Part shown: positions 4,281 through 45,508 of the stretch, one piece after another
Layout of the letters: every line of letters starts with the position of its first letter
Position numbering within the stretch: the first letter of the stretch is position 1
Assembly (NCBI GenBank): GCA_018818405.1
Contig: JAHIRY010000040.1
Coordinates: 1-45,508, forward strand
Direction of reading: 5' to 3'
Length of the DNA: 45,508 nucleotides
DNA from: Patescibacteria group bacterium
Lineage (GTDB): Bacteria; Patescibacteriota; Patescibacteriia; UBA11705; JABHMO01
The notes under the pieces: model-generated
What the model was told of the DNA's origin: nothing
Seen by the model: the letters and a program-made list of their open reading frames with translations, nothing else
The model's database searches: none
Translations under genes and position numbers: made by a program

Positions 4281-4303
4281 AAATTAAATGTTTAAATTAT
4301 TTA

Positions 4304-12052: not shown

Positions 12053-13666
12053 TTATTTTTTCACGCAAGCGGAAACAAACGCGTTGAACAGCGGATGGCC
12101 GGTGAACGGTCGGGATTTGAATTCCGGATGAAACTGCGTGGCAACGAAAAACGGATGACTCGGAATTTCAATAATCTCGGCCAGCAGTCCGTCCGGAGAA
12201 TTTCCGGCGATCATCATTCCGTTTTTTTCTAATATTTCACGGTAATCATTGTTCAATTCATAGCGATGGCGGTGCCGCTCGGAAATATTTTCCATTCCGT
12301 AAGCGGAAAAAGATTTTGAACTTTTTTTCAGAACGCACGGATAATCGCCGAGCCGCATGGTCGCGCCGTAATTTTTCTGTTCTAGATTTTTTATTTGTTC
12401 CGGCATTACATGGATCACTTGATCTGACGCGTTCGGATCAATTTCCTGCGAAGTTGCGCCGGAAATTCCGCAAACATTGCGCGCGAATTCAATGAACGCG
12501 AGCTGCATGCCGTAGCACAATCCGAGAAAAGGAATATTATTTTCTCTCGCAAATTTAATGGCCATCATAATTCCTTCCGTTCCCCTCGCGCCAAATCCGC
12601 CGGGCACAACAATGCCGTCAACTTGCGGCAATTCATTTATTTTTTGCGGATCATTTTCATATTCTTCCGAATCAAGCCATAAAATTTTCGGAATTCTTCC
12701 ATTCAACCACGAAGCGTGATTGATGGATTCAATCACTGAAATGTAAGTGTCTCGGCAGGATTTCAAATTAAAATATTTTCCCACAATTCCAATAGTCACT
12801 TCATCGGACAAATTTTTTATTTTTTCCGATAACGATTCCCATTCGCTCAAATCCGACTGCCGAGCTTCCAGATTCATCGCTTTGAGCAACACCTCGCCCA
12901 AATTTTCTTTTTCAAAATTAACGGGAATATCGTAAATCGAATTCACATCAGGCGCGGAAATAATTCTTTCTTTCGTCAGACTGCAAACCGTGCTGATTGT
13001 ATTCTTGATAGCATCGCCGACCGGACTCTCTGCTCGGCACAAAATAAAATCAGGCGCTATTCCGGCTGAATTCAGAGTTCTGATCGCGTATTGCGTCGGC
13101 TTTGATTTTTGCTCGCCGAGAAGACGAGGCGTCGGCAGATAGCTGACCATGACAAAAGAAACATCTTCCGGATTTTTCGCTTTCATCATGCGCGCGGCTT
13201 CCAAAAACAATAATAATTGATATTCTCCGACAGTGCCGCCGAGCTCGACAATCGTCACTTCAGAGTCATTTTTTTCCTGGCATTGCATGATTCTCCGAAT
13301 AATTTCATTGGGAATATCGGGAACAACTTCCACATCTTCGCCATTATATTCCAGATTTCGTTCTCGGCGAATGACTTCCTGATATACTTGGCCGGTGGTG
13401 ATATAATTGTCGCGCGTGCAAATCTGATCGGTGAATCTTTCATAATTTCCCAGATCTTGATCAGCTTCCACTCCGTCCATTCCGACAAAAACTTCGCCGT
13501 GCTCAGCCGGACGAATGGTTCCCGCGTCAATATTCACATACATGTCGCACTTGATATTGGCAATGCGAAAACCTTTTGATTTTAAAATACTTCCCAGCGA
13601 AGCGGCGGCCACGCCTTTTCCCACAGAGGACATTACTCCGCCAACAACAAAAATAATTTTTTTCAT
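12053..13666 (-). CDS. pyrG: CTP synthase
   Basis: GGVMSSVGKG, VPGGFGARG, GLCYGMQ, RHRHRYE, QFHPEF. Confidence 0.98.
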   Translation of the reverse strand: MKKIIFVVGGVMSSVGKGVAAASLGSILKSKGFRIANIKCDMYVNIDAGTIRPAEHGEVFVGMDGVEADQDLGNYERFTDQICTRDNYITTGQVYQEVIRRERNLEYNGEDVEVVPDIPNEIIRRIMQCQEKNDSEVTIVELGGTVGEYQLLLFLEAARMMKAKNPEDVSFVMVSYLPTPRLLGEQKSKPTQYAIRTLNSAGIAPDFILCRAESPVGDAIKNTISTVCSLTKERIISAPDVNSIYDIPVNFEKENLGEVLLKAMNLEARQSDLSEWESLSEKIKNLSDEVTIGIVGKYFNLKSCRDTYISVIESINHASWLNGRIPKILWLDSEEYENDPQKINELPQVDGIVVPGGFGARGTEGIMMAIKFARENNIPFLGLCYGMQLAFIEFARNVCGISGATSQEIDPNASDQVIHVMPEQIKNLEQKNYGATMRLGDYPCVLKKSSKSFSAYGMENISERHRHRYELNNDYREILEKNGMMIAGNSPDGLLAEIIEIPSHPFFVATQFHPEFKSRPFTGHPLFNAFVSACVKK

Positions 13667-14139: not shown

Positions 14140-14167
14140 AAAATTTTACAATTATCCTCCTCATTAA

Positions 14168-15433
14168 TTATTTCTTTAGCAATTCCAGCGCTTTGTCCAA
14201 TTGAGGATCTTTCTTGTTTTCATAATCTTCCTTTGTCAGATCCACTTCAATGTCAGGCGCGATTCCTTCTTCATTGATGCTCCGGCCGTTCGGAGTCAGC
14301 CATTTCGCGATCGTGATTTTCAGAGCAGATCCGTCAGGCAATTTTTTCAACGCTTGAACAGAACCTTTGCCAAAACTTTTCTTTCCCACAATATCCGCGA
14401 TTTTGTAATCCTGAAACGCGCCGGCGACAATTTCCGAAGCGGATGCGCTGCCTTCATTGATCAGCACAACCGTTTTTATTCCTTTGAGCGGACTATTATT
14501 TTCCGCGTTGTATTTTATTTCATTTCCATCACCCATTTTTTCAATCAAAAGCAAATCATCCTGAATCCAAGCTGAGGAAATATTGAGTGCTGTATCCAGA
14601 AACCCGCCGGGATTGTTGCGCAAATCCAGAATAATTCCCTGAACATTTTTTGATTTTGCTTCTCTGACAAATTGAGAAAACAAATCATCAGTATCGCCGT
14701 TGAAACCGCTCATTTCAACATAAGCGATATTATTTTCCAAAAATTTCCACTTTACGCTTTTCATTTTGATTGTATCTCGCAGAATCTTCACATCGCGCGC
14801 TTCTTCTTCTCCGCTCACAATCAACAATGTCACTTCAGTTCCTTTCGAACCGCGAATCAGATGAACCACTTTGTCGAGCGGCTCGCCCACAACTTCCTTG
14901 CCGTCAACCGCCAATATTTTATCGCCGGACTTGAGTCCCGCTCGGCTGGCCGGCGTATCAGGCAGCGGCGCTATCACGGTAGCGATGCCGTCCTTGAGTC
15001 CGAGTTGCGCTCCGATGCCTTCAAATTCTCCGGAAATTTGCAACTCAAATTCTTCATTTGTTTTCGGATCAAAGAAAACGGTGTAAGGATCATCAAGACC
15101 GGCGACCAATCCTTCGAGCGCGCTGTAAAATATTTTTTGTTCATCAATCTTTTCCTTGTCAACAAAATCACTGTTTATCAGAGTCCAAACTTGTTCCACC
15201 AAACTATTTTGAAAAACTTTCGGCAGTTCCGTTTCCTTGTATATGTCAGGATTCAATTTTAAATTTATTTTTCCGCTGGTTATTTTTCCGATAACAAATC
15301 CGCCGACCGAAGAAATTATTATTAAGACAATTATTCCGATAATCGCCAATCCGAATCGTAAATTTTTCTTTTTTGCGCTGGCTTGCATAGTTATTGAAAC
15401 ATTGGAAAATTCCGCAAATGTTTTTTTCCGCAT
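14168..15433 (-). CDS. ctpA: S41 carboxy-terminal processing protease with PDZ domain
   Basis: LDDPYT, GIGA, LDLRNNPGG, SASASEI (Ser), FGKGSVQ (Lys); real start may be near 15388. Confidence 0.93.
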   Translation of the reverse strand: MRKKTFAEFSNVSITMQASAKKKNLRFGLAIIGIIVLIIISSVGGFVIGKITSGKINLKLNPDIYKETELPKVFQNSLVEQVWTLINSDFVDKEKIDEQKIFYSALEGLVAGLDDPYTVFFDPKTNEEFELQISGEFEGIGAQLGLKDGIATVIAPLPDTPASRAGLKSGDKILAVDGKEVVGEPLDKVVHLIRGSKGTEVTLLIVSGEEEARDVKILRDTIKMKSVKWKFLENNIAYVEMSGFNGDTDDLFSQFVREAKSKNVQGIILDLRNNPGGFLDTALNISSAWIQDDLLLIEKMGDGNEIKYNAENNSPLKGIKTVVLINEGSASASEIVAGAFQDYKIADIVGKKSFGKGSVQALKKLPDGSALKITIAKWLTPNGRSINEEGIAPDIEVDLTKEDYENKKDPQLDKALELLKK

Positions 15434-30910: not shown

Positions 30911-32714
30911 ATTCATTTACTCTTTCTTTGTTTTCTCGCACAACCTTTTCAATGAATTCCGTGAATGGAATCGCGCCCAAATCGCCTTTGCCGTGCCGGC
31001 GGACAGCTACTGTTTTGTCTGTCTCTTCTTTTTCTCCGACAACCAAGAGATACGGAACTTTTTCTTTTTCACCGTTTCTTATTTTCTTTCCCAGTGATTC
31101 ATCATCATTATCGAGAACAACGCGAATTTCATTTTTCTTCAATTCCCGCGTTATTTCCTCTGCGTATTGATTGAACTTTTCCGAAATTGGCAGGACTTTC
31201 ACCTGAACCGGAGACAGCCACAGCGGAAAAGCGCCGGCATAATGTTCGATCAGCAAACCGATGAATCTTTCGAACGAACCCATGAGCGCGCGATGCAGCA
31301 TATACGGCCGTTCTTCTTTTCCTTCCGAATTGATATAGGTCATGTCAAATCTTTCCGGCAAATTGAAATCAAATTGAAGAGTGGAACATTGCCATTCTCG
31401 GCCGAGCGCGTCTTTAACTTTGTAATCCAGCTTCGGTCCGTAGAACGCGGCTTCACCTATTTCTTTTGAATATTCGATTCCCAGTTCAGAGGCGACTTTT
31501 TCCATTACAGCTTCAGTGAATTCCCAGCCTTCATCATTGCCCGTGTATTTTTCCTTGTTCGCCGGATCGCGCAATGACAAATAAATTTTATAATCGGAAA
31601 AACCGAATGAATCGAAAATATATTTTATAAAATTCGCCACTCGCTTTAATTCTTCCGCCACTTGCTCTCTCGTGCAAATGATATGCGCGTCATCCTGAGT
31701 AAATCCGCGAACGCGAGTCAATCCGGACAATTCGCCGGATTTTTCATAACGATAAACAGTGCCGCATTCCGCCCAGCGCAGAGGAAGATCTTTGTAAGAA
31801 TGCATTTCGGATTTGTAAATTTCAACATGAAACGGACAATTCATCGGCTTTAGCAAATATTCTTCTTTCGGTTTGTCCGAACCGGCGGAAGTTTGCTGTT
31901 CTTTCAATGATTTGCTCACTTCGATTGACGGATACATGCTCTCATTGTAAAAATTCCAATGTCCGGAAGTTTCCCAAAGCGCGCGACTGCCGATGTGCGG
32001 ACCGCGCACCAATTCATAACCGTTTTCCAGATGCGCTTTGTACCAAAAATCTTCAATCACCCGCCAGAGCATCGCGCCTTTCGGCTTCCACAGAGGAAGA
32101 CCGAGGCCGACGACCGGATCGAGAACAAACAAATCTTTTCCAATAACGCGATGATCTCTTTTTTCCGCTTCTTCCAAAAGATTCAAATAATTTTCCAATT
32201 CTTCATTCGTTTCAAATGCCAAGCCGTAAATTCTCTGAAGCATTTTGTTTTTTTCATCGCCCCGCCAATACGCGCCCGCCAACTTTTGCAATTTAAATGC
32301 GCCGATCTCGCCGGTTGACTCAACATGAGGACCGCGGCACATGTCTTCGAAAACAACATTGCCGTCTTTGTCGATATTTTTGTAAAAACTTATTTCCGTT
32401 TCTCCTTCGCGCGCCAGATCGTCAATCATTTCATGTTTATATTCATTGCCTTTAACTTTTTCCAAAGCTTCGGAAATCGGCAATTTATATTGTTCAAATC
32501 GGTATTTTGCTTTTACAATATTTTTCATTTCTTTTTCCAGCCGTTTCAAATCTCCCGGAGCAAAAGATTCTTCACCCAGATCAAAATCATAATAGAATCC
32601 ATTGTCAATCGCCGGTCCGATAGTTAATTTCGCGTTCGGATAAAATTTCAATACAGCCTGCGCCAAAATGTGCGAAAGAGAATGGCGCATGATTGTTAAT
32701 TTTTCATTGTCCAT
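30909..32714 (-). CDS. thrS: Threonine--tRNA ligase (no N-terminal TGS domain)
   Basis: RHSLSH, DMCRGPHV, RDHR, KPMNCPFH, LTRVRGFTQDDAH, GSFERF; start MDNEK at 32714. Confidence 0.97.
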   Translation of the reverse strand: MDNEKLTIMRHSLSHILAQAVLKFYPNAKLTIGPAIDNGFYYDFDLGEESFAPGDLKRLEKEMKNIVKAKYRFEQYKLPISEALEKVKGNEYKHEMIDDLAREGETEISFYKNIDKDGNVVFEDMCRGPHVESTGEIGAFKLQKLAGAYWRGDEKNKMLQRIYGLAFETNEELENYLNLLEEAEKRDHRVIGKDLFVLDPVVGLGLPLWKPKGAMLWRVIEDFWYKAHLENGYELVRGPHIGSRALWETSGHWNFYNESMYPSIEVSKSLKEQQTSAGSDKPKEEYLLKPMNCPFHVEIYKSEMHSYKDLPLRWAECGTVYRYEKSGELSGLTRVRGFTQDDAHIICTREQVAEELKRVANFIKYIFDSFGFSDYKIYLSLRDPANKEKYTGNDEGWEFTEAVMEKVASELGIEYSKEIGEAAFYGPKLDYKVKDALGREWQCSTLQFDFNLPERFDMTYINSEGKEERPYMLHRALMGSFERFIGLLIEHYAGAFPLWLSPVQVKVLPISEKFNQYAEEITRELKKNEIRVVLDNDDESLGKKIRNGEKEKVPYLLVVGEKEETDKTVAVRRHGKGDLGAIPFTEFIEKVVRENKERVNE

Positions 32715-34465: not shown

Positions 34466-35278
34466 TCACAGCGGACTTTTTATATTTCGCAAAGCCATGT
34501 TGGTCAGATGCGTGTAAATTTGCGTTGTTCGGATATTTTGATGGCCGAGGAGTTCCTGCACATAGCGCACGTCCACTCCGTTTTCCAGGAGATGCGTGGC
34601 AAAGCTGTGGCGCAAAGAATGAAAAGTTGCTGATTTCCCAACTTTTGCTTTCTTCAATGCATTCTCAAAAATTTTCTGCGCGGTTCTCTCGGTCAATCTG
34701 CCGCCGCGCTCGCTTTCCAGTAAAAATTCATCAAAATCACGACAGCCAATCATTTTTATCAGGTCATCTTTCAGTTTTTCCGGAATTACTGAAATTCGAT
34801 CTTTTCCTCCTTTCGATTGTCTGATCGCAATTTGCAAATGAACGCAATCGATGTCTTTTATTTTTAATTTTACAATTTCCGAAACACGAAGTCCCGAGCC
34901 ATAAGCAAGCGCAATAAGCATCCGATGTTTATTATTTCTGATGGAAGCAAGAATTACGGCAATCTCTTCTCGAGAAAAAATTACGGGCAAGCGTTTCGGT
35001 TTGCGCGCATATTTCAAATTAATGCAAAACGGCGCTTTTACTATATTCTCATAAAAAAACTTGATTGCATTCAATCGCACATTAACGGTTTGACCGGAAA
35101 TGCCGCGTTCCAACAAACCCGCCAAATACTTTTTCGTCTTGTATTCATCGAATTTTTCAAAATCACAACCCAAATATCTGAAATAATCCTCAATACAACT
35201 CAAATAACTTTTCACAGTACTCCGGCTGTAATTTCGATACTTCAATTCAATTTCCATTTTCTCAATCCATTGTTGCAT
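34466..35278 (-). CDS. Tyrosine recombinase, IntI-like but lacking the IntI-specific insertion
   Basis: YSxxT..Y SAM-like N-domain, PKRLPV, GLRVSE, KGGKDR, HSLRHSFATHLL, LLGH, TQIYTH; only about 20 aa between the KDR strand region and the pre-HxLRH helix. Confidence 0.93.
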   Translation of the reverse strand: MQQWIEKMEIELKYRNYSRSTVKSYLSCIEDYFRYLGCDFEKFDEYKTKKYLAGLLERGISGQTVNVRLNAIKFFYENIVKAPFCINLKYARKPKRLPVIFSREEIAVILASIRNNKHRMLIALAYGSGLRVSEIVKLKIKDIDCVHLQIAIRQSKGGKDRISVIPEKLKDDLIKMIGCRDFDEFLLESERGGRLTERTAQKIFENALKKAKVGKSATFHSLRHSFATHLLENGVDVRYVQELLGHQNIRTTQIYTHLTNMALRNIKSPL

Positions 35279-35301
35279 AGAACCCCTCCCTTTGTTATAA
35301 T
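35273..35301 (+). promoter_or_regulatory. Pc-like cassette promoter overlapping the recombinase start codon and SD
   Basis: TTGCAT-N17-TATAAT with extended TG. Confidence 0.75.
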
Positions 35302-35313
35302 TATCTTAATCAA

Positions 35314-35322
35314 ATTATAACA
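35314..35322 (-). promoter_or_regulatory. Pint-like extended -10 promoter for the recombinase
   Basis: TGTTATAAT on the minus strand; SD GGGAGGGG before ATG. Confidence 0.6.
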
Positions 35323-35362
35323 TAAATCATAACACAATTCGTTTTAGCTACCAATTATTGCA

Positions 35363-35401
35363 TCTTATACGAAAACATTTCGCATAAGAACGAGTTATAT
35401 G
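35363..35401 (+). other. attI-like primary recombination site
   Basis: Hairpin TCTTATACGAAA-ACA-TTTCGCATAAGA, then ACGA and core GTTATATG; CGCATA box shared with attC right arms. Confidence 0.7.
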
Positions 35402-35622
35402 AAATACATGTTTTCCTTTTGGGGCTATCGCCCCAGCTCTTAAAAAGAATCCGATTTTGTTTTTCTTTTATTATAGAGGGGAAATATGGAGTTTTCTTCG
35501 CTACGCTACGAAAACATTTATTTTATAAGGGGAATAAGCGGTATTTCCTCCGCTTCGCTCCGGAAACGGTTTATTTATTAGGGGAAAACGAATACAATAA
35601 CATTTGTTAAAACATAATAACT

Positions 35623-38214
35623 ATGGCAAACGATAAAGAAGCAAAAGCGCGAATAAAAATTAATAAACTCCTTGAGGATTCAGGGTGGCGTTTTGATGAT
35701 TCTAAAAATGGAAAAGCCAACATCCAACTTGAGGCTGGCGTAAAATTCAATGAACTCGATGAAAATTTAGAAAACGCCGTAACCAGCGATGGTCGTCGCG
35801 GAGCAATTGATTTTCTCTTACTTGATAAAGACGGACGCGCGCTTGTCGTATTAGAAGCAAAAAAAGAATCAATTGATCCACTTTCCGCAAAAGAACAAGC
35901 TAGAAATTATGCACGCAACGTCAATGCACGTTTTGTAATTCTTTCAAACGGCAATATTCATTATTTTTGGGACACTAAACATGGCAATCCGGAAGTGATT
36001 TCTAGATTTCCTACCCAAGATTCAATTACTCAATTCGAAAAATGGGAACCAAATCCAAAAGAATTGGCCGAAACAAAAGTAGATGAAAATTATATTATTG
36101 AATCCCAAATGCCGGGATTTGCCAACGATCCAACTTTTCAAAATACCGACACACGAGGAGAATTTCTAAAAAACAACAATTTAAAACAACTCCGACCTTA
36201 TCAAGTAAACGCAATAAAAAGCCTTCAAACTTCGGCGCAATCAGGACAGAATCGCTTTTTGTTTGAAATGGCAACAGGCACAGGCAAAACCCTTATTTCC
36301 GCCGCCGTCATCAAGTTATTTCTCAAATCAGGCAATGCGCGCAGAGTTTTGTTTTTAGTAGATCGTCTTGAACTTGAAGATCAAGCATTTAAGGCATTTA
36401 GAAACTATTTGGGGCATGATTATGGAACTGTAATTTACAAAGATTCTCACGATTCTTGGCAGAACGCACAAATTGTCGTTTCCACAATTCAGACATTTCT
36501 TGCCGGAGACAGATACAAAAAAGATTTTTCGCCAACCGATTTTGAATTTGTTATTTCCGATGAAGCCCATCGTTCAATTGGAGGAAACAGTCGTGCCGTA
36601 TTTGAATATTTTGTCGGCTATAAATTGGGATTAACCGCTACTCCAAAAGATTATCTAAGAGGATTTGACGGAGAAAATGGCGACACTCAAAGAGAATTTG
36701 AAAGAAGGCAACTTCTCGATACTTACAAAACTTTTGGCTGTGAATCAGGCGAACCAACTTTTCGCTATGATCTTGTCGCCGGAGTAAATGATGGATTTTT
36801 GATCAATCCGATTGTGGTAGACGCACGGACAGAGATAACCACTGATTTGCTTTCCGACGAAGGATTGGCAGTTCACAAAACAAATGAAAATGGCGAATCA
36901 ACTGATGACATTTTCAACGAACGGCATTATGAGCGTAAATTTTTCAACGAGGAAACCAACATCGCCATGTGTAAGGCGTTTATGGATAATGCGCTTTTTG
37001 ATCCAATGGCAAAAAAACGAGGCATTGAATTGTTTGGCAAATCAATTGTTTTCTGTGTTTCTCAAAGGCATGCTGCCAAAATTACCAATATTCTCAACAA
37101 ACTAGCTTTTGAGAAATGGCCAGATCAATACAATGAATCAGATTTTGCCGTTCAAGTTACTTCTCTAGTACAAAACGCCCAGCAAATGACTATAAATTTT
37201 GCCAATAACATGCTTTCAGGCAAGGTACGACAACCCGAAGGCTATGATTCCAGTAAGACCAGAATTGCTGTAACTGTGGGGATGATGACTACTGGCTATG
37301 ATTGCCAGGATATTTTAAATCTTGCTTTGATGCGCCCTGTTTTTTCTCCGGCTGATTTTGTGCAAATCAAAGGGCGTGGCACTCGCAAATATACTTTTGA
37401 ATATGAAGATTATAATTCGGACGAAACTATCGCAGAACCAAAAGAACATTTTAAATTTTTCGATTTCTTTGCAACCTGCGAATACTTTGAAAATGAGTTT
37501 CCTTATGATGAAAAAATTAAACTCCCTGTAGTAAAACAAATTAAATCCGTTGAAGATATTGTTAAAAACCAAGCTAAACAAGGCGAGTTTGTCGATGAAA
37601 ACGGAAACAAAATTTTCAAAGGTCCAATTGACTTGGCAGAAAGCGACGAAGTGGCATCAATAACAGAAACACCGGTCGGAGTAGAAGGTATGCGAATTGA
37701 CCGCGAAGGATTCAAGAGAGCGGTAGAAGAAGATATACGCGGAAACGAAACCCTCAAAAACCTTTGGGAAAATGGCGATACTGAAGAAGCCGAAGATTTT
37801 GCTAAAAAACATGTACTTGATAAACCAAAATATTTTCTCAATCTTGATAAAATTCGTAAAATTTTCAATGTTGATCGTCGAATTAGCGTCAAAGAATTTT
37901 TGCAGGTTGCCTTTGGTGACAAAGATACCTTTGAAATGAAAGATGATTTATTGGAATCAGAATGGGATAAATTTCAAGAAGTAAATTTCAATAATCAGGA
38001 AATTGAAACAGAAAAATATCAAGCGATAAAAATGTTTTTCAAAGCGTATATCGTAGACGAAGAAGTCCGCGATATTATTAAACGAAACCAGCCGGCGGAC
38101 TTTTATCACTGTGCTTCATTTGATTTTTCCGAATATCAAAGACTAAATGGCTTTAAAGAACTCGTGCCAAGATACATCAAAGATTATGTATCACTTAATA
38201 CTTTTATGAATTAG
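35623..38214 (+). CDS. hsdR: Type I restriction enzyme R subunit
   Basis: D...EAK nuclease motif, ATGTGKT, DEAHRS, LTATP, MMTTGYD, QIKGRGTR. Confidence 0.93.
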   Translation: MANDKEAKARIKINKLLEDSGWRFDDSKNGKANIQLEAGVKFNELDENLENAVTSDGRRGAIDFLLLDKDGRALVVLEAKKESIDPLSAKEQARNYARNVNARFVILSNGNIHYFWDTKHGNPEVISRFPTQDSITQFEKWEPNPKELAETKVDENYIIESQMPGFANDPTFQNTDTRGEFLKNNNLKQLRPYQVNAIKSLQTSAQSGQNRFLFEMATGTGKTLISAAVIKLFLKSGNARRVLFLVDRLELEDQAFKAFRNYLGHDYGTVIYKDSHDSWQNAQIVVSTIQTFLAGDRYKKDFSPTDFEFVISDEAHRSIGGNSRAVFEYFVGYKLGLTATPKDYLRGFDGENGDTQREFERRQLLDTYKTFGCESGEPTFRYDLVAGVNDGFLINPIVVDARTEITTDLLSDEGLAVHKTNENGESTDDIFNERHYERKFFNEETNIAMCKAFMDNALFDPMAKKRGIELFGKSIVFCVSQRHAAKITNILNKLAFEKWPDQYNESDFAVQVTSLVQNAQQMTINFANNMLSGKVRQPEGYDSSKTRIAVTVGMMTTGYDCQDILNLALMRPVFSPADFVQIKGRGTRKYTFEYEDYNSDETIAEPKEHFKFFDFFATCEYFENEFPYDEKIKLPVVKQIKSVEDIVKNQAKQGEFVDENGNKIFKGPIDLAESDEVASITETPVGVEGMRIDREGFKRAVEEDIRGNETLKNLWENGDTEEAEDFAKKHVLDKPKYFLNLDKIRKIFNVDRRISVKEFLQVAFGDKDTFEMKDDLLESEWDKFQEVNFNNQEIETEKYQAIKMFFKAYIVDEEVRDIIKRNQPADFYHCASFDFSEYQRLNGFKELVPRYIKDYVSLNTFMN

Positions 38215-38216
38215 AC

Positions 38217-38474
38217 ATGTCTAAAAATAAAAAAAAACAAACAATCGGATTTTGGGATAAGGGAAAAGAAACAACACTTATTAATTGTTCTAGCGAAGGT
38301 TTTGATATTGGCCTAAAGTCAGAGGGTGAAGGGCTACTGGCTAAAAATTTTAAATCGCTAGGTAATACTACAAATTCTGATTGGTATGAAAAATGGTGGA
38401 TGAAATATATTATTTTTCCTCTTGCTGTACTAATCATTGGAGCTTTTGTTATTTTTTATATTGGATTAAATTAA
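38217..38474 (+). CDS. Small protein with C-terminal TM helix within the R-M operon
   Basis: 85 aa; 2 nt after hsdR stop and 4 nt before hsdM start; WWMKYIIFPLAVLIIGAFVIFYIG. Confidence 0.7.
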   Translation: MSKNKKKQTIGFWDKGKETTLINCSSEGFDIGLKSEGEGLLAKNFKSLGNTTNSDWYEKWWMKYIIFPLAVLIIGAFVIFYIGLN

Positions 38475-38478
38475 AACT

Positions 38479-40980
38479 ATGCTTACATCAGAAACAAAAC
38501 GACATATTGATGCGGCTAGGCAAGTCCTCGTGGGCGTAGTGCCAAACCCAACATCACAAATTGATCAGATTACCAACGCGCTGATCTATAAATTTATGGA
38601 TGACATGGATCAATCGGCTATAAAAGCCGGTGGCTCACCATCTTTTTTTACTGATGATTTGGAAAGATATGCTTGGACACGCCTGATGGATAGCAGACTT
38701 GGCAATCAAGAAAGAATGAATCTGTATTCAGAAGCTCTGATTAAATTTTCGCAAGCTAAACAATTACCCGAACTTTTTAGAAATATTTTTAAATCCGCAT
38801 TTTTGCCATATCGCTCACCGGAAGTTTTAGGATTATTTTTAAAAGAAATAAATTATTTTGATTATTCTCACCCAGAAGATTTGGGCGATGGCTATGAATA
38901 TTTGCTTTCAATCATGTCCTCTCAAGGCGATGCAGGACAATTCCGCACCCCTCGCCATATTATTGATTTTATCGTTGATGCTATCAACCCGACAAAAGAC
39001 GACAAAGTACTTGATCCTGCTTGCGGAACAGGTGGATTCTTGGTCAGCTCATACAAGCATATATTAGAACAACACGACGGCAAAAATGATCCGGAAAAGA
39101 AAGAAAAACCGCTCACCCCAGATGACAGAAGAAAACTTTTTCAAAACTTTGAAGGATATGATATCGATCCAGGCATGGTGCGAATTGCGCAGGTCAATAT
39201 GTATCTGCATCAATTCAAAAATCCGAAAATTTTTCAATACGACACTTTGGGAATGGATGAACGCTGGAATGACAAGTTTGATGTAATACTCGCCAATCCG
39301 CCGTTTATGTCGCCAAAAGGTGGTGTTCGTCCGCATAGTAAATTTAGCGTGCAGTCGAGCCGATCAGAGGTTTTGTTTGTGGACTACATCATGAACCACT
39401 TGAAACCCAAAGGCCGAGCAGGTGTAATCGTACCAGAAGGAATTATTTTTCAATCAGGAAGTGCGCACAAACAACTTCGCAAAAACCTCGTCAATGACGG
39501 GCTGTATGCAGTCGTGAGCTTGCCAAGTGGAGTGTTTCAGCCATACAGCGGTGTAAAAACCAGTATTTTGCTTTTTGATAATGAACAAGCGAAGCAACGA
39601 AGTGAGGTTTTGTTTGTAAAAGTGGAAAATGACGGCTTTGATCCGGGCGCAACAAAAAGACCTATTAGCAAAAACGATTTGCCGACTGCTTTGGATATTT
39701 TAGACAAATGGAAAACTGGCGAGAAAGTGGAAAGCAAGTTGGCGGTTTATGTAGAAAAATCCAAAATTGCTGAAAACGGAGACTACAATCTTTCCGGTGA
39801 TCGCTATCGTGTAGCAACAGATTACAGCAATGCAAAATGGCCGATGGTGGAGTTGGGAGAGGTTTCAGAAATATTAAACGGCTACGCTTTCAAGAGTGAA
39901 AAATACACAAACAATGGTATTCGAGTTATTCGAATTACAAATGTACAAAAAGGTAAAATTGTTGATGATGATCCTAAGTTTTACTCTGAAGATTCAATTA
40001 ACGAAATTGGGAAATTTTTACTCGCTAAAAGTGATCTTTTGATTTCTCTCACTGGTAATGTCGGTAGAGTTGGATTGTTACAATCTGACTTATTGCCAGC
40101 CGGACTGAATCAACGAGTTGGTTGTATTCGTCTAAATGACAGCAAACAAGTTTCAATCAGTTATCTTTTTCATGTATTGAATACAGAATTATTTGAAGAT
40201 GATTGTATAAGAGCTTCAAGTGGTGTTGCACAGAAAAATTTAAGTACAGAATGGTTGAAAAAATATCAAATTCCTGTCCCACCTCTCGAAATTCAAGAGC
40301 AAATTGTGGCCGAGTTGGACGGCTACGCAGGCATAATCTCCGGCGCCAAACAAATCTCCCAAAATTGGAAACCAAAAATTGACATCGATCCGGAGTGGGA
40401 GAAAGTGAAGCTGGGGGAAATTGCAACGCTTGTTCAAGGTATAAATACTGCGGTGGATAAGCTTCACTATATTGAAGATGGTATAAAGGTTTTGCAAGCA
40501 AATAATATTTATCAAGGATCTGTGAATTTTGATAATTTAAAATTTATAACTGCAAAAGAATTTTCAGCGATTAACACAAAATACAAACCCACGAAAGAAG
40601 ATGTTTTATATTCAAATATCGGTGCTAGATTTGGGTATGCTTCAACTATAGATTTTGATGATAAATTTACATTTTCCTGGAATGTTATGAGAATGGTTAT
40701 TTTAGATAAATCAAAACTAGACAAATTTTATCTAAAAAATATTCTTAATTCTGATTTACTTCGACAGGTTGTGCTAAGTCAAGCATCAACAAGTACGATG
40801 CCATTTATATCTGGAAAAGATTTGAAGGCAATCGAAATCCCTCTTCCACCTCTCGTTATTCAAAAGCAAATCGTGAAAAAAATCGAGGCCGAGCGCACGC
40901 TGGTGGAATCTGCCAAAAAGTTGATTGATATTTACGAAGAAAAAACAAAAGAAACGATTTCTAAACTGTGGAATGAATAA
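38479..40980 (+). CDS. hsdM-hsdS: Fused type I methyltransferase-specificity subunit (HsdM-HsdS)
   Basis: GQFRTP, DPACGTGG, NPPF (m6A); two target recognition domains closed by PPLEIQEQIV and PPLVIQKQIV. Confidence 0.92.
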   Translation: MLTSETKRHIDAARQVLVGVVPNPTSQIDQITNALIYKFMDDMDQSAIKAGGSPSFFTDDLERYAWTRLMDSRLGNQERMNLYSEALIKFSQAKQLPELFRNIFKSAFLPYRSPEVLGLFLKEINYFDYSHPEDLGDGYEYLLSIMSSQGDAGQFRTPRHIIDFIVDAINPTKDDKVLDPACGTGGFLVSSYKHILEQHDGKNDPEKKEKPLTPDDRRKLFQNFEGYDIDPGMVRIAQVNMYLHQFKNPKIFQYDTLGMDERWNDKFDVILANPPFMSPKGGVRPHSKFSVQSSRSEVLFVDYIMNHLKPKGRAGVIVPEGIIFQSGSAHKQLRKNLVNDGLYAVVSLPSGVFQPYSGVKTSILLFDNEQAKQRSEVLFVKVENDGFDPGATKRPISKNDLPTALDILDKWKTGEKVESKLAVYVEKSKIAENGDYNLSGDRYRVATDYSNAKWPMVELGEVSEILNGYAFKSEKYTNNGIRVIRITNVQKGKIVDDDPKFYSEDSINEIGKFLLAKSDLLISLTGNVGRVGLLQSDLLPAGLNQRVGCIRLNDSKQVSISYLFHVLNTELFEDDCIRASSGVAQKNLSTEWLKKYQIPVPPLEIQEQIVAELDGYAGIISGAKQISQNWKPKIDIDPEWEKVKLGEIATLVQGINTAVDKLHYIEDGIKVLQANNIYQGSVNFDNLKFITAKEFSAINTKYKPTKEDVLYSNIGARFGYASTIDFDDKFTFSWNVMRMVILDKSKLDKFYLKNILNSDLLRQVVLSQASTSTMPFISGKDLKAIEIPLPPLVIQKQIVKKIEAERTLVESAKKLIDIYEEKTKETISKLWNE

Positions 40981-40987
40981 ATAAATT

Positions 40988-42781
40988 ATGCCTCATATAA
41001 TCAAGCACAATTTACTGAAAAAAACTCTCGACGAAATCGCAGAGACTGCGCCGGATCATCTGACGATTTACCATCCGGACGAGAGCGATCAAGATGGCCA
41101 AATTCACAAATATTCTCGGACACAAATCCACCTTTTTTTAAGAGTCCATTTTGGATTATTAGACTTTAATATTGCCGAAGATCAGATTACTGACGGCACA
41201 GATGACGGTGGTCTGGATGCGTATCATATTGACGCAGAAAAGAAAACTATCTATCTTATACAATCAAAATATAAAACTACCCCGGAAGGATACCTTAACA
41301 ATGATGTCGATTGGCGCGAATTCTTTAAAATGGAGCTAGATCGTATTGTCCAAGGCGAAACGGCCTCGTCATCAGGTCACCAATATAATGGAAAAATAAG
41401 AGGTCTCCAACAAAAAATTGGAGAAATTGCTGATATAGCACGGTGGAACTATACACTGATATATTTAGGAAATGTCCCTTCTGCTATTACAAAAGAAAGG
41501 TTGTTAACTGTCAGCGGTGGAGTTTGCACAAACACAGAGATACTACACGGAAACGATTTCTATAACCAAGTTTTAATCCCATATCTTAAGCGTGACTTTT
41601 ACGACAAAGAAGACTTCTCCTTTGAGATATACATCAATCAAGAACGATCAGCAAATCGTATCAGATATTCCGTTGATTTAGCTGATGGCGAATCTGCGGA
41701 GGTCCAGCTTTGTTTTGTCCCAACAATGGAAATAGCAAGGATGATGTCGCAATACAGAAATTCGATTTTACAATACAATCCACGTTGTTATGTAGGTATC
41801 AAAAATACCGGTGTTAATGCTGACATCAGAGACTCAGTTTCTAACACGGCACATAATGAATTTTCATTACTTAACAATGGCATTACCGTTGTCTGCAATG
41901 AGGTAAATTACAACGATAATACTGCGCAACGAGGAAGAGCTTCAATTACTGTATCTAATCCACAGATAGTAAATGGCGGTCAAACAGCGTTTACTTTAGC
42001 ACATCTATTTGAGAATAATTCTGACAATTCAATTTTTGACGGAAAAGAAGTTCTCACAAAATTTATAATTATTGTAGGCAATCGAGATGAAATGATAGAA
42101 AAAATATCTAATGCTACCAATAATCAAAATCCAATAAGGCCAAGGGATAAAGCCTCAAATGATCTAAAAATGATTCAATTGCAGTCGGGCCTCTTTGATC
42201 AATATGGCGTTCTACTCGAAAGAAAGCAGGGAGAATTTTATGACTCGATAAAAGAGGGTCTTATAGACAAAAAAAATGTAATAGACAGCGTTATTCTTAT
42301 GCGTCTTTTGCTTGTATATCGTGGTTCAGTTGCAAGAGCAAGAAGTGCTGGAGAGGGTGTGCTTTTTAGAGATTACAACCTTGACGGAGTTGAAGTTAGC
42401 GAAATTTATAAGCTCATTCGAATTTACAATAAAATCTCTAATCTCGACCAACCTAGTGAAAGAGATGGACGAAAACGTTACCAAATTAATATCTGGGGTA
42501 ATGGACTTAGATACGGTCAATGGGCTATTATATATGCAGTTTATCAATTATCTAAATCCGGTGAAAATCTTAATGATTGTTTGAATCGTGTTCAATCACG
42601 ATGGATAGATTTCGAAACTACTGTTGCAAATCATGAACATAATCAAAGTTATTCTTCTGACGGCTTCGATTATGCAAACTATTATAAAGGAAGTACCATT
42701 GATCGAGATTTAAATGAATATATCCCTAATATAGGAGAATTAGTAGAATCAAAAACCGATGTGGAAATTCCGAAGATATAA
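40988..42781 (+). CDS. AIPR family (abortive infection phage resistance) protein
   Basis: DGTDDGGLDA...IQSKY nuclease-like N-terminus; NPRCYVG, LLNNGIT, PQIVNGGQT, ATNNQN. Confidence 0.88.
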   Translation: MPHIIKHNLLKKTLDEIAETAPDHLTIYHPDESDQDGQIHKYSRTQIHLFLRVHFGLLDFNIAEDQITDGTDDGGLDAYHIDAEKKTIYLIQSKYKTTPEGYLNNDVDWREFFKMELDRIVQGETASSSGHQYNGKIRGLQQKIGEIADIARWNYTLIYLGNVPSAITKERLLTVSGGVCTNTEILHGNDFYNQVLIPYLKRDFYDKEDFSFEIYINQERSANRIRYSVDLADGESAEVQLCFVPTMEIARMMSQYRNSILQYNPRCYVGIKNTGVNADIRDSVSNTAHNEFSLLNNGITVVCNEVNYNDNTAQRGRASITVSNPQIVNGGQTAFTLAHLFENNSDNSIFDGKEVLTKFIIIVGNRDEMIEKISNATNNQNPIRPRDKASNDLKMIQLQSGLFDQYGVLLERKQGEFYDSIKEGLIDKKNVIDSVILMRLLLVYRGSVARARSAGEGVLFRDYNLDGVEVSEIYKLIRIYNKISNLDQPSERDGRKRYQINIWGNGLRYGQWAIIYAVYQLSKSGENLNDCLNRVQSRWIDFETTVANHEHNQSYSSDGFDYANYYKGSTIDRDLNEYIPNIGELVESKTDVEIPKI

Positions 42782-42977
42782 AATAATAGTGTGTTTTCGG
42801 TCGGGGCAATTCACCCCTTTTCTTCCCCTCTTGCCCCTCCCTCAAACAGAAATAGGAGTTTTGGGCTTCGGGCATTCACCCCTAACCCCTCTGCCCTTCG
42901 CCCAAAACAGAAAAACAAAATCAGATTCTTTTTAAGAGCGATTTGCTATCGCAAATCAAAAGGAAAACATGTACATC

Positions 42978-43104
42978 ATATAACACTGCGTATGCGGTTA
43001 CGGCTTGCTCCGTACCTCCGCAAGCCTACACCCATATTTGCCAGTGGTAAGCACTTCGTGCAATTATACCACTGGCAAACATCGCATACGCAGGAACGTT
43101 AGCT
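42978..43104 (+). other. attC-like site 1 (127 bp)
   Basis: ATATAAC...GTTAGCT; arms CTGCGTATGCG/CGCATACGCAG. Confidence 0.85.
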
Positions 43105-43123
43105 GAAATTTTAAAATTTATTT

Positions 43124-43837
43124 ATGCCTGAAAAATATAATAATCCGTCGCCCCCAGAAAAAGAAAGTGGATTTTATAGCGACATCGTTCGGCGGTATGA
43201 AACAGAAGTAAATCGCTTTGTTCCAGGTTATGCTGAGGAAATTGTTCCTCTCGTAACTGGTGAAGTAATCAGAAAAGCTCATAACGGAGCTGTTTTAGAC
43301 CTTGGCTCTGGCGTAGGGAATGTAGATGAAATCATTATAGATCAAGCAAACCCTCAATCCATTGACTTAGTTGAAATTTTAGAGCCAATGATTGAAGAAT
43401 CTAAAAAGCGATTGGAAGATAAAAATTCCACCATTCGTTTTCATGAGATGTCCGCTGAAGATTTTGAAGCCGAACCAAATAGTTTTAATGCAGTACTGTC
43501 AAACCTTGTTATTCACAATATCCCTTATGAAGACAAAGTTAGACTTATAAGCAATATTCATAAGTGGCTTAAAGATGGTGGAATTTTTATCTGGACTGAT
43601 CTTGTGAGCTTTTCTGATACCGCCGAACTCGAAAGATGTTTTGAAGAGCGTAAAAAAATAGCCATTTCGATGGGGGCGACTGAGGAATTCGCAGAAGAGA
43701 ATTTTAAAAAGGAACGAGAAGAAGATAATATGATTACCGTTGAACAAATGACTGAAATGCTACAACAAGCTGGTTTTCAAAATATTGAAATTCTCTGGAC
43801 TCGGTACAATGAAGTGGTCATGCGAGCAACGAAATAA
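43124..43837 (+). CDS. Class I SAM-dependent methyltransferase (loosely CmoA-like), cassette 2
   Basis: VLDLGSGVG motif I, NLVIHN, LKDGGIF. Confidence 0.85.
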   Translation: MPEKYNNPSPPEKESGFYSDIVRRYETEVNRFVPGYAEEIVPLVTGEVIRKAHNGAVLDLGSGVGNVDEIIIDQANPQSIDLVEILEPMIEESKKRLEDKNSTIRFHEMSAEDFEAEPNSFNAVLSNLVIHNIPYEDKVRLISNIHKWLKDGGIFIWTDLVSFSDTAELERCFEERKKIAISMGATEEFAEENFKKEREEDNMITVEQMTEMLQQAGFQNIEILWTRYNEVVMRATK

Positions 43838-43850
43838 ATTTTAAAACATC

Positions 43851-43926
43851 AGCTAACATTGAATATCTGGTTCCGCTTCGCTCCACCCAAATTGCTCGCA
43901 ACTTCAGATATCCAGAAACGTTGTAC
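43851..43926 (+). other. attC-like site 2 (76 bp)
   Basis: AGCTAAC...GTTGTAC; arms TTGAATATCTG/CAGATATCCAG. Confidence 0.85.
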
Positions 43927-44174
43927 GAAATTCCAACTAGTAAACGAGGTAGATTGAAAGTTTGTGCAAACAAAAAAGCACGTCTTAAAAACGAACTTTT
44001 AACTGATTACCCGTCGGAACTGTCGTACAACACCGAGTATGCGGTTGCGTGAAGAAGAAATTATTGATTTTTCTTTTCATTTTAAATCTGGCTCTTTTCA
44101 ATTTTTTCTATCAGAAAGTGAAGCGCCCTGCCCGAGATGTCTCGAACAGGGCGTGATCTATGACATGAAGGAAG

Positions 44175-44549
44175 CTACGGACCCTCGAACATGATCCGCC
44201 TGCCAACCGCCCGATTGTATGCGCTGTCCTCTCCCGTCAAATCCTTTGACGTATTGTTACCCATTGCGAAAATGGTTGCGAACAGATCTGACACCATCGG
44301 GCGATCAATGCTGTCAAGTGCCAGAAGCGCTGTAAACACTGAACTGACTGGATCAGAACTCCCTGTTGCATTGTCGAGGTTGTGAGTCGAGAACTCTCTG
44401 TGAGACACCACGTATCCACCATCAGGGTTATAGCTCTTGAGCCACGCTTCCCTGTCTTTGATGAAAAGTGCTGCATCATCACCACTCAGAAGATGCCAAG
44501 AGGTTGCCAGTTCGGCACCCTCAGCGACACGCACGAAAACATGCTTCAT
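44175..44549 (-). CDS. Hypothetical 124-aa protein inside attC3, antisense to the array
   Basis: AGGAGG SD 7 nt before ATG; own promoter; hairpin 44124-44153 after the stop. Confidence 0.7.
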   Translation of the reverse strand: MKHVFVRVAEGAELATSWHLLSGDDAALFIKDREAWLKSYNPDGGYVVSHREFSTHNLDNATGSSDPVSSVFTALLALDSIDRPMVSDLFATIFAMGNNTSKDLTGEDSAYNRAVGRRIMFEGP

Positions 44550-44589
44550 GTTTTACCCTCCTAAATTCGTCGCGGAATTGCGACTTCAT

Positions 44590-44619
44590 ATATTAGCAGA
44601 TCCACACCCCACCTGTCAA
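44590..44619 (-). promoter_or_regulatory. Promoter of the attC-embedded gene
   Basis: TTGACA-N18-TAATAT with extended TG. Confidence 0.65.
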
Positions 44620-44879
44620 GCCAACGAGGGACGAAAAAATTGAAAAGAGCCCTAAATTAAGGAAAAAAATCAATAATTTCTTCTTCACTCCACCCAAATC
44701 CCGCTCTTGAAATTGAGGGTTTTAAGGGGTAAAATAGGTTGGTGTTGAAGCGAAAGTTTGTACTAAAAACGAAGGGCGGGACTTCGCATACTCGGGGACG
44801 TTAAACGTAATCAGTAAAGTGGCTATAAAGTGGAAGTCGTTCCGATAACTTTTTTAATTAGTATCATTTTTTAATTAAC

Positions 44880-45506
44880 ATGACTCAAATCGTAGAAACT
44901 TGCAAATTCGTTGTTGATAATTCTCAACACGTAAAAATAAACTTGGAAAAGGTTGATGAGTTTGTCAATTATTTTAGTCATTCCCATATCAAACATTGGT
45001 TTAATGAATCGCCCTTTAATATTAGAAATTTAGCCCCCAAAGAAAGATTGCATTTTTTATTGGTGTTTAATTCGATTAGTTTTTCTTATTGGGGAGATCC
45101 AAAATGGAGAATTAATTATCATTCCAAAGAAATAGATGGAGCCTATGGAATGATTGGAGCAATTGGCAGAGCAATTGAAAATAAGACTCCCATTTTGGAT
45201 GCAAAATTTCTTTCTGAGATTAAAGAAGAAGAGTTTAGTAAAATTTTAGAAGGAACTGTTCAAATTCCTCTTTTTGAAGATAGATTAAATATTTTGCGAG
45301 AAATTGGAACAATCCTCTTGGAAAAATTTGAAGGCGATTTTACTAACCTCATCAATCAAGCCAATGGCGATTCACAAAAATTATTGAGTTTGATAATTGA
45401 GAATTTTCCTTCTTTTAATGACTCCTCAATTTACAATGGAAGACAAGTTTATTTTTACAAGCGTGCACAACTTTTAGTTGCTGATGTTGTGCAAGCTTTC
45501 AACGGA
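44880..45506 (+). CDS. Queuosine salvage protein (Qng1/DUF2419 family), partial, cassette 4
   Basis: Not in ORF track; manual translation MTQIVETCKFVVDNSQHVKIN...FNSISFSYWG...IPLFEDR...FPSFNDSSIYNGRQVYFYKRAQLLVAD. Confidence 0.85.
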   Translation, partial: MTQIVETCKFVVDNSQHVKINLEKVDEFVNYFSHSHIKHWFNESPFNIRNLAPKERLHFLLVFNSISFSYWGDPKWRINYHSKEIDGAYGMIGAIGRAIENKTPILDAKFLSEIKEEEFSKILEGTVQIPLFEDRLNILREIGTILLEKFEGDFTNLINQANGDSQKLLSLIIENFPSFNDSSIYNGRQVYFYKRAQLLVADVVQAFNG

Positions 45507-45508
45507 CA

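Follow-up and report, generated by a model that had tools for sequence, protein, structure and literature searches.

A putative integron-type gene-cassette platform with a recombinase lacking the I2 domain in a Patescibacteria genome

A recombinase gene and a divergent cassette array

The stretch of DNA analysed here, hereafter the window, is the entire 45.5-kb contig JAHIRY010000040.1 (45,508 nucleotides; C16 below) of assembly GCA_018818405.1, which belongs to a Patescibacteria group bacterium with a genome of 1.06 Mb in 48 contigs and an estimated completeness of 100%. From position 34,466 onwards it carries the gene of a 270-amino-acid (aa) tyrosine recombinase and, pointing the other way, an array of gene cassettes bounded by attC-like sites. 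We propose below that these are parts of an integron-type cassette platform whose recombinase has no I2 domain, the insertion of roughly 40 residues, with the I2 helix around patch III, that distinguishes integron integrases (IntI). A sequence-only reading of the window had already drawn attention to the array. Its statement that the recombinase gene is transcribed away from the array agrees with the layout of the open reading frames (ORFs), and the 8-nucleotide (nt) cores that it had listed are all in place, namely GTTATATG at 35394 with CATATAAC at 42977, GTTAGCTG at 43098 with CAGCTAAC at 43850, GTTGTACG at 43920 with CGTACAAC at 44024, and GTTAAACG at 44800. The principal features of the locus are the following.

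34466..35278, minus strand: tyrosine recombinase, 270 aa (PF00589, SAM-like N-terminal domain, TIGR02249 match, alignment and tree)
35338..35405, plus strand: attI-like docking site, a conserved block upstream of the recombinase gene and adjoining it
35394..42984, plus strand: unit 1, multi-gene defence cassette of 7.6 kb (Pfam, NCBIfam and PADLOC)
42977..43105, plus strand: site B, CATATAAC-AC-TGCGTATGCG ... CACCCATAT ... CGCATACGCA-GGAAC-GTTAGCTG
43098..43857, plus strand: unit 2, single-gene cassette with an S-adenosylmethionine-dependent methyltransferase (ORF 43124-43837, Methyltransf_25/11)
43850..43927, plus strand: site C, CAGCTAAC-AT-TGAATATCTG ... CACCCAAAT ... CAGATATCCA-GAAAC-GTTGTACG
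43920..44031, plus strand: unit 3, 112 bp, without an ORF
44024..44807, plus strand: site D, expanded to 784 bp, CGTACAAC-AC-CGAGTATGCG ... CACCCAAAT ... CGCATACTCG-GGGAC-GTTAAACG
44800..45508, plus strand: unit 4, queuosine-salvage cassette (Qng1/Q_salvage; ORF from 44880, PF10343 8.7e-46), cut off by the contig end

The array proposed by the sequence-only reading was confirmed, but its extent had been underestimated, as the same genome contains at least eight loci bearing such sites, three docking sites and one recombinase gene of this type, and as site D encloses a gene. For comparison we used 60 homologue loci with 31–67% recombinase identity (41–67% without the most distant locus). Other contigs of the window genome are denoted C1, C5 and so on, and loci from elsewhere L019, L044 and so on.

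The recombinase lacks the IntI insertion

Pfam recognized PF00589 (2.9e-40) and Phage_int_SAM_4 in the recombinase, and the catalytic residues R, K, HxxR, H and Y are all present in the alignment (GLRVSE, KGGKDR, HSLRHSFATH, LGH and IYTH). The best NCBIfam match was the integron-integrase model TIGR02249, which aligned in two stretches with 223.8 bits against a cut-off of 265; the integrase model PRK15417 gave 145 bits and did not reach its cut-off of 435. The Xer models likewise remained below their cut-offs (XerA_Arch 213.5 versus 220, XerC 182 versus 335, XerD 175 versus 330). The closest solved structure was VchIntIA (2A3V), to which the protein aligned in two pieces that bypass chain residues 203–239. 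When we aligned the recombinase and its homologues by MAFFT with IntI1 (from an annotated plasmid), Escherichia coli XerC and XerD, and PDB fragments, the IntI insertions (about 10 and about 31 residues) were missing from the recombinase and from every homologue, the approximately 60 homologues being uniformly about 270 aa long. The gap in the VchIntIA alignment and the MAFFT alignment therefore agree with the earlier claim that this protein has no IntI insertion. Public annotation describes the enzyme only as 'XerD' or 'tyrosine recombinase/integron integrase'.

A tree with IntI and XerC/XerD, which the sequence-only reading had suggested, placed the recombinase on the IntI side. In this maximum-likelihood tree, a branch with 100/97 support splits IntI and the 270-aa family from XerA (two sequences), XerC, XerD and the Xer protein encoded on contig C40; IntI forms a clade of its own (100/99), and the 270-aa family (97/80) stands outside it. 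With the thin sampling and midpoint root of this tree, the 270-aa family appears as the sister of IntI. Both groups moreover have a C-terminal (K/R)SPL ending in common (KSPL in the window enzyme), which none of the Xer proteins has.

Only two tyrosine recombinases are encoded in the genome, and the second one, on C40, matches XerD/XerC best and passes the XerA_Arch cut-off. Among 61 relatives, the 270-aa enzyme was found in 37 and the Xer type of C40 in 58, a difference that marks the 270-aa recombinase as an accessory enzyme rather than a dimer resolvase. The family is conserved and large, with more than 7,000 protein clusters. Most homologue loci carry labels of Patescibacteria lineages (Falkowbacteria or Uhrbacteria for the loci with the closest recombinase relatives), along with a few from Leptospira and Fibrobacteria; some of the bin labels are doubtful. 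Recombinases of this type also occur on contigs labelled Gammaproteobacteria, Bdellovibrionales, Altiarchaeales and Actinomycetota (among L007, L009, L012, L014, L016, L017, L027, L050 and L058–L062), which are probably mislabelled bins. The Leptospira and Fibrobacteria recombinases form deep branches within the 270-aa family, and its range may extend past Patescibacteria.

Each cassette begins with a core that is complementary to its end

According to the sequence-only reading, units starting at a GTT core end in the reverse complement of their own start. This holds for all three units of the window that can be read to both ends. Genome-wide, eight of the nine fully readable units match exactly in the five variable positions, compared with a match in all five positions for 5.6% of random start/end pairs among real sites. 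Single 8-mers are weak evidence by themselves, with two or more copies of GTTATATG in 18 of 100 shuffles; the matched-core pattern as a whole is not a product of chance. The matched ends proved to be longer than the 8 nt of the earlier description, which stood as far as it went: the complementarity extends into terminal inverted repeats of about 76 nt in unit 1, 24 of 26 nt in unit 2 and about 25 nt in unit 3. The repeats of these three units contain an identical 2-nt mismatch at positions 10–11 (GAAAT versus GATGT). Automated pairing of consecutive sites across loci was misleading, given that the filter lost real sites (such as site C) and that other site subtypes are present; the array of L044, read by eye, follows the same rule.

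The pattern is also seen in cassettes orthologous to unit 4. On metagenome contigs, cassettes encoding a 318-aa Qng1 close about 75 nt past the stop codon with the reverse complement of the core that they start with. Six of nine core pairs were exact, comprising the three different pairs listed here, and the remaining three had one mismatch.

L073: start GTTAGACG, end CGTCTAAC
L074, L076, L080 and L081: start GTTATACG, end CGTATAAC
L084: start GTTAGGCG, end CGCCTAAC

Joint changes of both cores in orthologous cassettes are difficult to account for without pairing of the two ends, which would be expected of cassettes that go through a circle or a single strand bringing their start and end together. 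The 3' end of unit 4 itself lies beyond the contig; no overlapping contig was found, and the 3' part of Qng1 is absent from the assembly. The sequence-only reading predicted CGTTTAAC as its end core, which is supported by the Qng1 pairs and by another unit, in L019, that begins with GTTAAACG and ends in ...ACGTTTAAC; no site-like ACGTTTAAC occurs elsewhere in the window genome. A further L019 unit, starting with GTTAAACGTAAT, was considered as a Qng1 cassette and rejected, as it carries a different gene of the HNH type.

Cassette ends form attC-like sites with a conserved shape

The cassettes are co-oriented, and each is bounded at its 3' end by an attC-like site; it is the shape rather than the sequence that the sites have in common. 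Sites B, C and D follow one geometry (...AAC, 2 nt, a 10-nt arm, a three-way junction with the linker CACCCAWAT, the second arm, 5 nt, GTT...), in which the GTT comes after the left arm, AAC and a 2-nt bulge (TT or AT) come before the right arm, and two variable hairpins flank the linker. Seen as stems, a site consists of an R stem (AAC/GTT), an asymmetric loop of about 2 versus 5 nt, a covarying 10-bp L stem, the 2-nt bulge and the junction. The sequence-only reading had described matched cores; the cores are matched, and the sites are not plain palindromes but three-way junctions with a conserved linker. Neither the sites nor the array flanks matched an Rfam family, and genes for tRNA or tmRNA were not found beside the arrays on C1, C5, C23 and C33.

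We tested covariation on sites picked by unpaired right-half motifs only, seeking the complement of the right arm upstream of the linker afterwards. The complement of a site's own L' arm (at least 9 of 10 positions) was present in 28 of 33 motif-defined sites, as against 3.9% for swapped arms, with 29 distinct arms in the set, and AAC stood 0–4 nt before the left arm in 26 of the 28. The L arms thus truly covary. The L' arm contains a TTCGnATA motif, spaced 16 to 18 nt from GTT.

Folding predictions distinguished the two strands. Site B, folded as DNA, had z = -5.8 on the bottom and -6.0 on the top strand, the bottom strand being the more stable (-35.7 versus -32.5 kcal/mol). For whole sites, the bottom strand was more stable in 44 of 46 cases (mean -22.3 versus -19.5 kcal/mol), and, counted over the predicted folds of these 46 sites, G.T pairs numbered 102 for the bottom and 25 for the top strand. 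The single A.C mismatch of the site C arm on the top strand is likewise a G.T pair on the bottom strand. This asymmetry appears only in whole-site folds, the 9-nt arms alone showing none (G.T versus A.C, 5 versus 5). Bottom-strand stability and G.T bias are consistent with a bottom DNA strand that folds, as it does in attC, and not with a signal in the sense RNA, for which the opposite bias would be expected.

Some sites depart from this form. Subtypes without the CACCCAWAT linker, which are plain hairpins, occur in L044 (reverse strand, 12740–12920, 13260–13320 and 14160–14380), so that a detector based on the three-way-junction type undercounts sites. The L044 arrays also contain tiny units without ORFs, for example GTTAGGCAAAATGCGCCGCGCATTTTGCATAAC.

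Site D is enlarged by a gene. Its hairpin 1 has 24-bp stems (44049–72 and 44665–88) that enclose the following ORF, for which Pfam, NCBIfam and PADLOC gave no match.

44175..44549, minus strand: 124-aa ORF inside hairpin 1 of site D, GC content 0.515 versus 0.32–0.37 in the adjacent cassettes

A permissive palindrome scan of the genome returned mostly noise, although it did reveal a second set of site D arms, on C1. There the arms enclose a different gene, a 98-aa ORF unrelated to the 124-aa ORF. This C1 hairpin lies at about 2690–2170, and both inner ORFs have about 50% GC, sit in hairpin 1 and are on the opposite strand. In sites on C23 (about 8290–7600) and L019 (reverse strand, about 3900–4500), a gene resembling HEAT/DNA-alkylation-repair proteins lies in hairpin 2 in forward orientation. 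Genes in site hairpins could be a birth route of new cassettes or a nested class of cargo.

Docking sites adjoin the recombinase gene and occur elsewhere in the genome

The attI-like block between recombinase gene and array, which we read as ...TTCGTTTTA...TATACGAAAACATTTCGCATAAGAACGA/GTTATATGAAAT, is made up of the elements below.

35338-46, plus strand: direct repeat TTCGTTTTA (sequence reading)
35366-76, plus-strand coordinates: inverted copy TATACGAAAAC (sequence reading)
35379-93, plus strand: left arm and spacer TTCGCATAAGAACGA
35394-405, plus strand: right arm GTTATATGAAAT

Its core is a dif-like imperfect inverted pair, ATTTCGCATAAG-AACGA-GTTATATGAAAT, with half-sites ATTTCnnnnAA(C/G) around a short spacer. 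The additional direct and inverted half-site copies upstream recall the accessory repeats of attI1.

The block is present three times in the genome, on C16 beside the recombinase gene and as orphans on C1 and C5. The orphans (C1 about 2878–2809 and C5 about 805–716, both minus strand) have no adjacent recombinase gene; a housekeeping gene and a promoter-like element lie upstream of each, and cassettes follow. Orphan docking sites of this kind imply that a single recombinase acts in trans.

Promoter-like sequences, recognized by consensus matches only and hence of predicted function, face in both directions from the space between recombinase gene and array.

35293..35354, both strands: divergent promoter region
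35293-35301, plus strand: extended -10-like TGTTATAAT, directed towards the array (read by eye)
35354..35326, minus strand: promoter-like TTGGTA-17-TATGAT, directed towards the recombinase gene (consensus scan)

The orphan docking site of C1 is likewise preceded by the TGTTATAAT motif. On C33 (about 35140–35040) and C23 (about 4100–4010, minus strand) we noted a conserved element, about 100 nt long (..GTTAGGCGnCGGGAATAAAATCCCAACACGACGCTTCGCGGATCnCACCTGTAAAAGCATACC..GGTATGCTTTTATTATACGAAC); it ends in a terminator-like hairpin and directly joins the ...GAAC box of a site. Neither Rfam nor ARAGORN matched this element on C33 and C23, and it may be another kind of array start.

Sites are linked to the recombinase gene, and cassettes show footprints of movement

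The sequence-only reading had made its case depend on homologues being linked to similar arrays, and this linkage was found. All 27 motif-defined sites lay upstream of the recombinase gene and on the array strand, with none downstream (230 kb of upstream versus 429 kb of downstream sequence), and 24 other loci have the attI-like block directly beside this gene. Of the 60 loci, 26 have a contig end within 1.2 kb on the upstream side of the gene and 6 on the downstream side, and such upstream breaks are to be expected from a variable or repeated array. Across the 61 relatives, sites (hand-filtered) were present in 21 of the 37 with the recombinase and 4 of the 24 without it (odds ratio 6.6, p = 0.003).

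Comparison of individual units between contexts gave a consistent boundary. The start of the methyltransferase unit (unit 2) also occurs on C5 with 96.8% identity over 125 bp, behind a different site, the junctions being ...GGAAC/GTTAGCTG on C16 and ...GGCGAC/GTTAGCTG on C5. Unit 3, which stands between two attC-like sites on C16, has an 89.5%-identical counterpart directly behind the docking site of C1 and a further copy on C30. On C1, the arms of site D precede GTTAGCTG, not GTTAAACG. The clearest case between genomes is L055, whose recombinase is 49% identical and which has the leader and trailer of unit 1, site B and GTTAGCTGAAAT in common with the window at 92% identity. The identity begins exactly at GTT, the sequences upstream of GTT being unrelated; the cargo within the common leader and trailer is a Fic and a methylase-like protein, and past GTTAGCTGAAAT L055 carries a unit that is found on C1 of the window genome. 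The unit-1 leader type also heads units on C1, C23 and L044, and its orientation relative to the preceding site is constant in C16, C1, C23, L044 and L055. In these unit comparisons, breakpoints between contexts are confined to AC/GTT.

An integron-type platform and its alternatives

We consider the locus to be an integron-type gene-cassette platform whose recombinase has no I2 domain, and we assign this interpretation a probability of roughly 80%. The sequence-only reading had arrived at a non-canonical integron class without the IntI domain, and the missing insertion, the linkage of sites to the recombinase gene and the tree speak for it. In the mechanism that we envisage, a recombinase dimer would bind a folded site at its R and L stems, in the way it would bind the two arms of the duplex docking site. 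It would act on the bottom DNA strand in its folded form, as happens in integrons or when Xer integrates CTX-phage. Cassettes would be excised by strand exchange between two successive sites, and a cassette circle would be inserted by being joined to a docking site. The cut would presumably fall in or beside AAC/GTT on the bottom strand, with one strand exchanged, and by analogy the product of this single exchange would be resolved by replication (PMC4792948, PMC7790495, PMC3442271). Likely handles in place of I2 are conserved unpaired features, namely the TT bulge, the 2x5 loop and the AA/CA mismatch at R-stem positions 10–11.

Several observations weigh against this interpretation. Four of the 24 recombinase-negative relatives still have sites, and 16 of the 37 recombinase-positive ones have none by our narrow pattern. 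The R'' and R' parts within one arrayed site pair over 3–4 bp only, and the TTCGnATA motif of the L' arm stands 1–2 nt farther from GTT than in the docking site, so that the folded site is no simple copy of the docking site. The G.T asymmetry comes from predicted folds of related, non-independent sites, the tree contains few Xer and IntI representatives on long branches with a midpoint root only, and we infer excision and insertion activity from comparative footprints. Finally, published work regards the additional domain of IntI as a requirement of recombination in integrons (Messier and Roy 2001, as cited in PMC9668308 and PMC7790495).

The alternative that survives best, although we think it unlikely, is exchange of double-stranded modules of the Xer/dif type, of the kind proposed for pdif modules of Acinetobacter plasmids, in which this enzyme or the housekeeping Xer would recombine duplex L'-spacer-R' cores and no folding would be involved. 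Such an exchange would fit the resemblance of the docking site to a dif-type inverted half-site pair, the presence of the same TTCGnATA motif in the L' arm and an enzyme that, like Xer proteins, has no I2; L'-R' direct repeats would yield identical excision products, and IntI itself is capable of duplex-by-duplex reactions (PMC4792948). It would, however, leave unexplained why each unit start pairs with its own end and why both cores change jointly in the Qng1 orthologues, as well as the covarying L arms in 29 distinct versions, the conserved three-way junction and the bottom-strand G.T bias. In addition, the spacing of 16 to 18 nt between the L' motif and GTT fits a duplex core site poorly, and the sites follow the accessory recombinase, not the near-universal Xer.

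We regard as very unlikely that the units are invertible, in the manner of phase variation or a shufflon, with the recombinase flipping them at terminal inverted repeats and no excision taking place. Inverted repeats of 25–76 nt do bracket every unit, type I restriction-modification loci of other bacteria are known to be switched by recombinases, and the ORFs inside site D and its C1 copy are encoded on the opposite strand. Nevertheless, all cassette genes that we read are co-oriented, the common leader always has the same orientation across the window, C1, C23, L044 and L055, the occurrence of units in different loci and genomes requires excision and insertion, and the ORF-less 112-bp unit offers nothing to switch.

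Less probable still, in our view, is that the sites are passive intergenic repeats to which the recombinase is unrelated, whether palindromes akin to repetitive extragenic palindromes (REP) or miniature inverted-repeat transposable elements (MITE), terminators or RNA-processing signals. Intergenic palindromes scattered over at least eight genome loci, and the four relatives out of 24 that carry sites without a detectable recombinase, would suit this explanation. Passive repeats would not account for the position and strand bias relative to the recombinase gene (27/27), the conserved docking site beside that gene, the own-core rule with its compensatory core changes or the breakpoints at AC/GTT; the wobble bias is on the antisense strand, contrary to a sense-RNA signal, and no Rfam family matches.

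We give next to no weight to a canonical integron made unusual merely by sequence divergence, since against the integron layout, the top NCBIfam match to the integron-integrase model and VchIntIA as best structure stand the absence of the IntI insertion from all of the approximately 60 homologues of about 270 aa each, the score below the TIGR02249 cut-off, a family clade separate from IntI, and sites with a linker, a three-way junction and a 2x5 loop where classical attC has an internal loop of roughly 5x6.

Comparison with integron and Xer systems

The platform would work like an integron, yet its recombinase is set apart from IntI by the missing insertion, the model cut-off and the clade, and from Xer by the cut-offs, the distribution and the clade. 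As in integrons, for instance the sedentary chromosomal one of Vibrio cholerae, the recombinase gene points away from a docking site that has accessory repeats and a promoter-like element, and the cassettes are co-oriented, mostly promoterless and loaded with accessory or defence cargo. The cassette-end sites are likewise imperfect palindromes with ...AAC/GTT... boxes and unpaired features, conserved in shape over sequence; the start core is complementary to the cassette's own end, and folding predictions favour the bottom strand. Some arrays have no recombinase gene beside them and in this resemble CALINs, clusters of attC sites with no adjacent integrase. Unlike integrons, the recombinase here has no I2, stands outside the IntI clade and scores below the integron-integrase cut-off, and the sites have a 2x5 loop, a TT bulge, a three-way junction and a CACCCAWAT linker. 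Cassette ends pair over 25–76 nt and not over 7, genes lie within site hairpins, multi-gene cassettes of up to 7.6 kb are held in a leader/trailer frame, and one 1.06-Mb genome has several docking sites. Archaeal integron integrases reported in 2022 carry the IntI insertion (PMC9668308).

With Xer/dif systems, including archaeal XerA, the enzyme has in common its protein size and a domain layout without I2, and the docking site is like an inverted half-site pair. Unlike Xer, it falls below the XerC, XerD and XerA cut-offs, separates in the tree, is patchily distributed (37/61 versus 58/61) and is tied to cassette arrays instead of a single chromosomal dif. In Acinetobacter plasmids, pdif sites are plain 28-bp duplexes in alternating orientation that are served by the host XerC/D. 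Modules bounded by pdif are, as here, discrete gene modules flanked by Xer-type sites and found in different contexts; unlike them, the sites described here are folded, 78–784 bp long and in one orientation, with a dedicated recombinase adjoining. Invertible-segment systems such as shufflons and phase-variable restriction-modification loci differ in that all leader and cassette-gene instances here are co-oriented.

Precedents exist for parts of this picture. In CTX-phage integration, an enzyme without I2 recombines a folded single strand by one exchange followed by replication (PMC7790495, PMC3442271). A 'Cand' subgroup of Xer-related tyrosine recombinases from candidate phyla has been classified, with an Xer-like role suggested (Smyshlyaev et al. 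2021, PMC8138268), and that work describes no cassette arrays, docking site or folded sites for the group. 'Cand', which consists of simple, Xer-like enzymes, is probably the same protein group as the 270-aa family or overlaps with it. In the literature searched, which largely excluded subscription journals, we found no description of the platform reported here. Current integron finders require the IntI domain and would presumably miss such platforms.

An I2-less family beside IntI that is tied to attC-like sites lets one ask whether cassette recombination at hairpin sites needs I2, and the platform bears on how integrons arose. It is a tentative and rather doubtful possibility that the family is a missing relative showing the origin of integrons. 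Capture of cassettes at folded hairpins would then predate I2 or be independent of it, and would be carried out by a compact Xer-like enzyme that recognizes dif-mimicking hairpins by their bulges and loops, in a platform differing from integrons in kind, with docking in trans, a leader/trailer frame and hairpin-born cassettes. Examples of hairpin-born cassettes in this scenario are site D, its C1 copy and the HEAT-repeat gene of L019 and C23. What the window contributes is a small genome with three docking sites and at least eight site loci, a 7.6-kb defence operon as a cassette, hairpin-nested genes and compensatory cores of Qng1. Patescibacteria with genomes of about 1 Mb would own a dedicated means of swapping defence and accessory genes, including a whole type I restriction-modification and Abi operon. 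The arrays may also account for the frequent contig breaks beside the recombinase gene in metagenome assemblies.

Cassette cargo

Cargo across the arrays is of an accessory or defence type, comprising type I restriction-modification, AbiU, Fic, nucleases, MazG and methyltransferases, and in the arrays that we read all cassette genes have one orientation. Unit 1 of the window is composed as follows.

35394-35622: leader
35623-38214: type I restriction subunit R
38217-38474: unannotated 85-aa ORF between the restriction subunit and the methylase-specificity fusion
38479-40980: fused methylase-specificity subunit
40988-42781: AIPR/AbiU
42782-42984: trailer

The product of 38479-40980 has 833 aa with an N6_Mtase and two Methylase_S domains, that is, a fusion of a type I methylase with a two-domain specificity subunit. 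A conserved leader, about 210 nt long, and a trailer flank multi-gene units in the window and on C1, C23, C39, L044 and L055, and the two are in part inverted repeats of one another (GGGGCTATCGCCCC hairpin; AGAGGGG versus CCCCTCT). Given the 92% identity around different cargo in L055, leader and trailer look like a reusable frame, which may serve as a promoter, in end-pairing of the RNA or in helping very long cassettes to fold.

Outside the arrays, C14 carries a second, divergent Q_salvage gene (31689-32276, a 347-aa frame scoring 31.9 bits with a family cut-off of 25), and the cassette-borne Qng1 may consequently be an extra copy. On C48 (about 40330–39530, minus strand), an in-frame stop apparently divides a cassette methyltransferase into two ORFs (72 and 180 aa), and the gene may be decaying.

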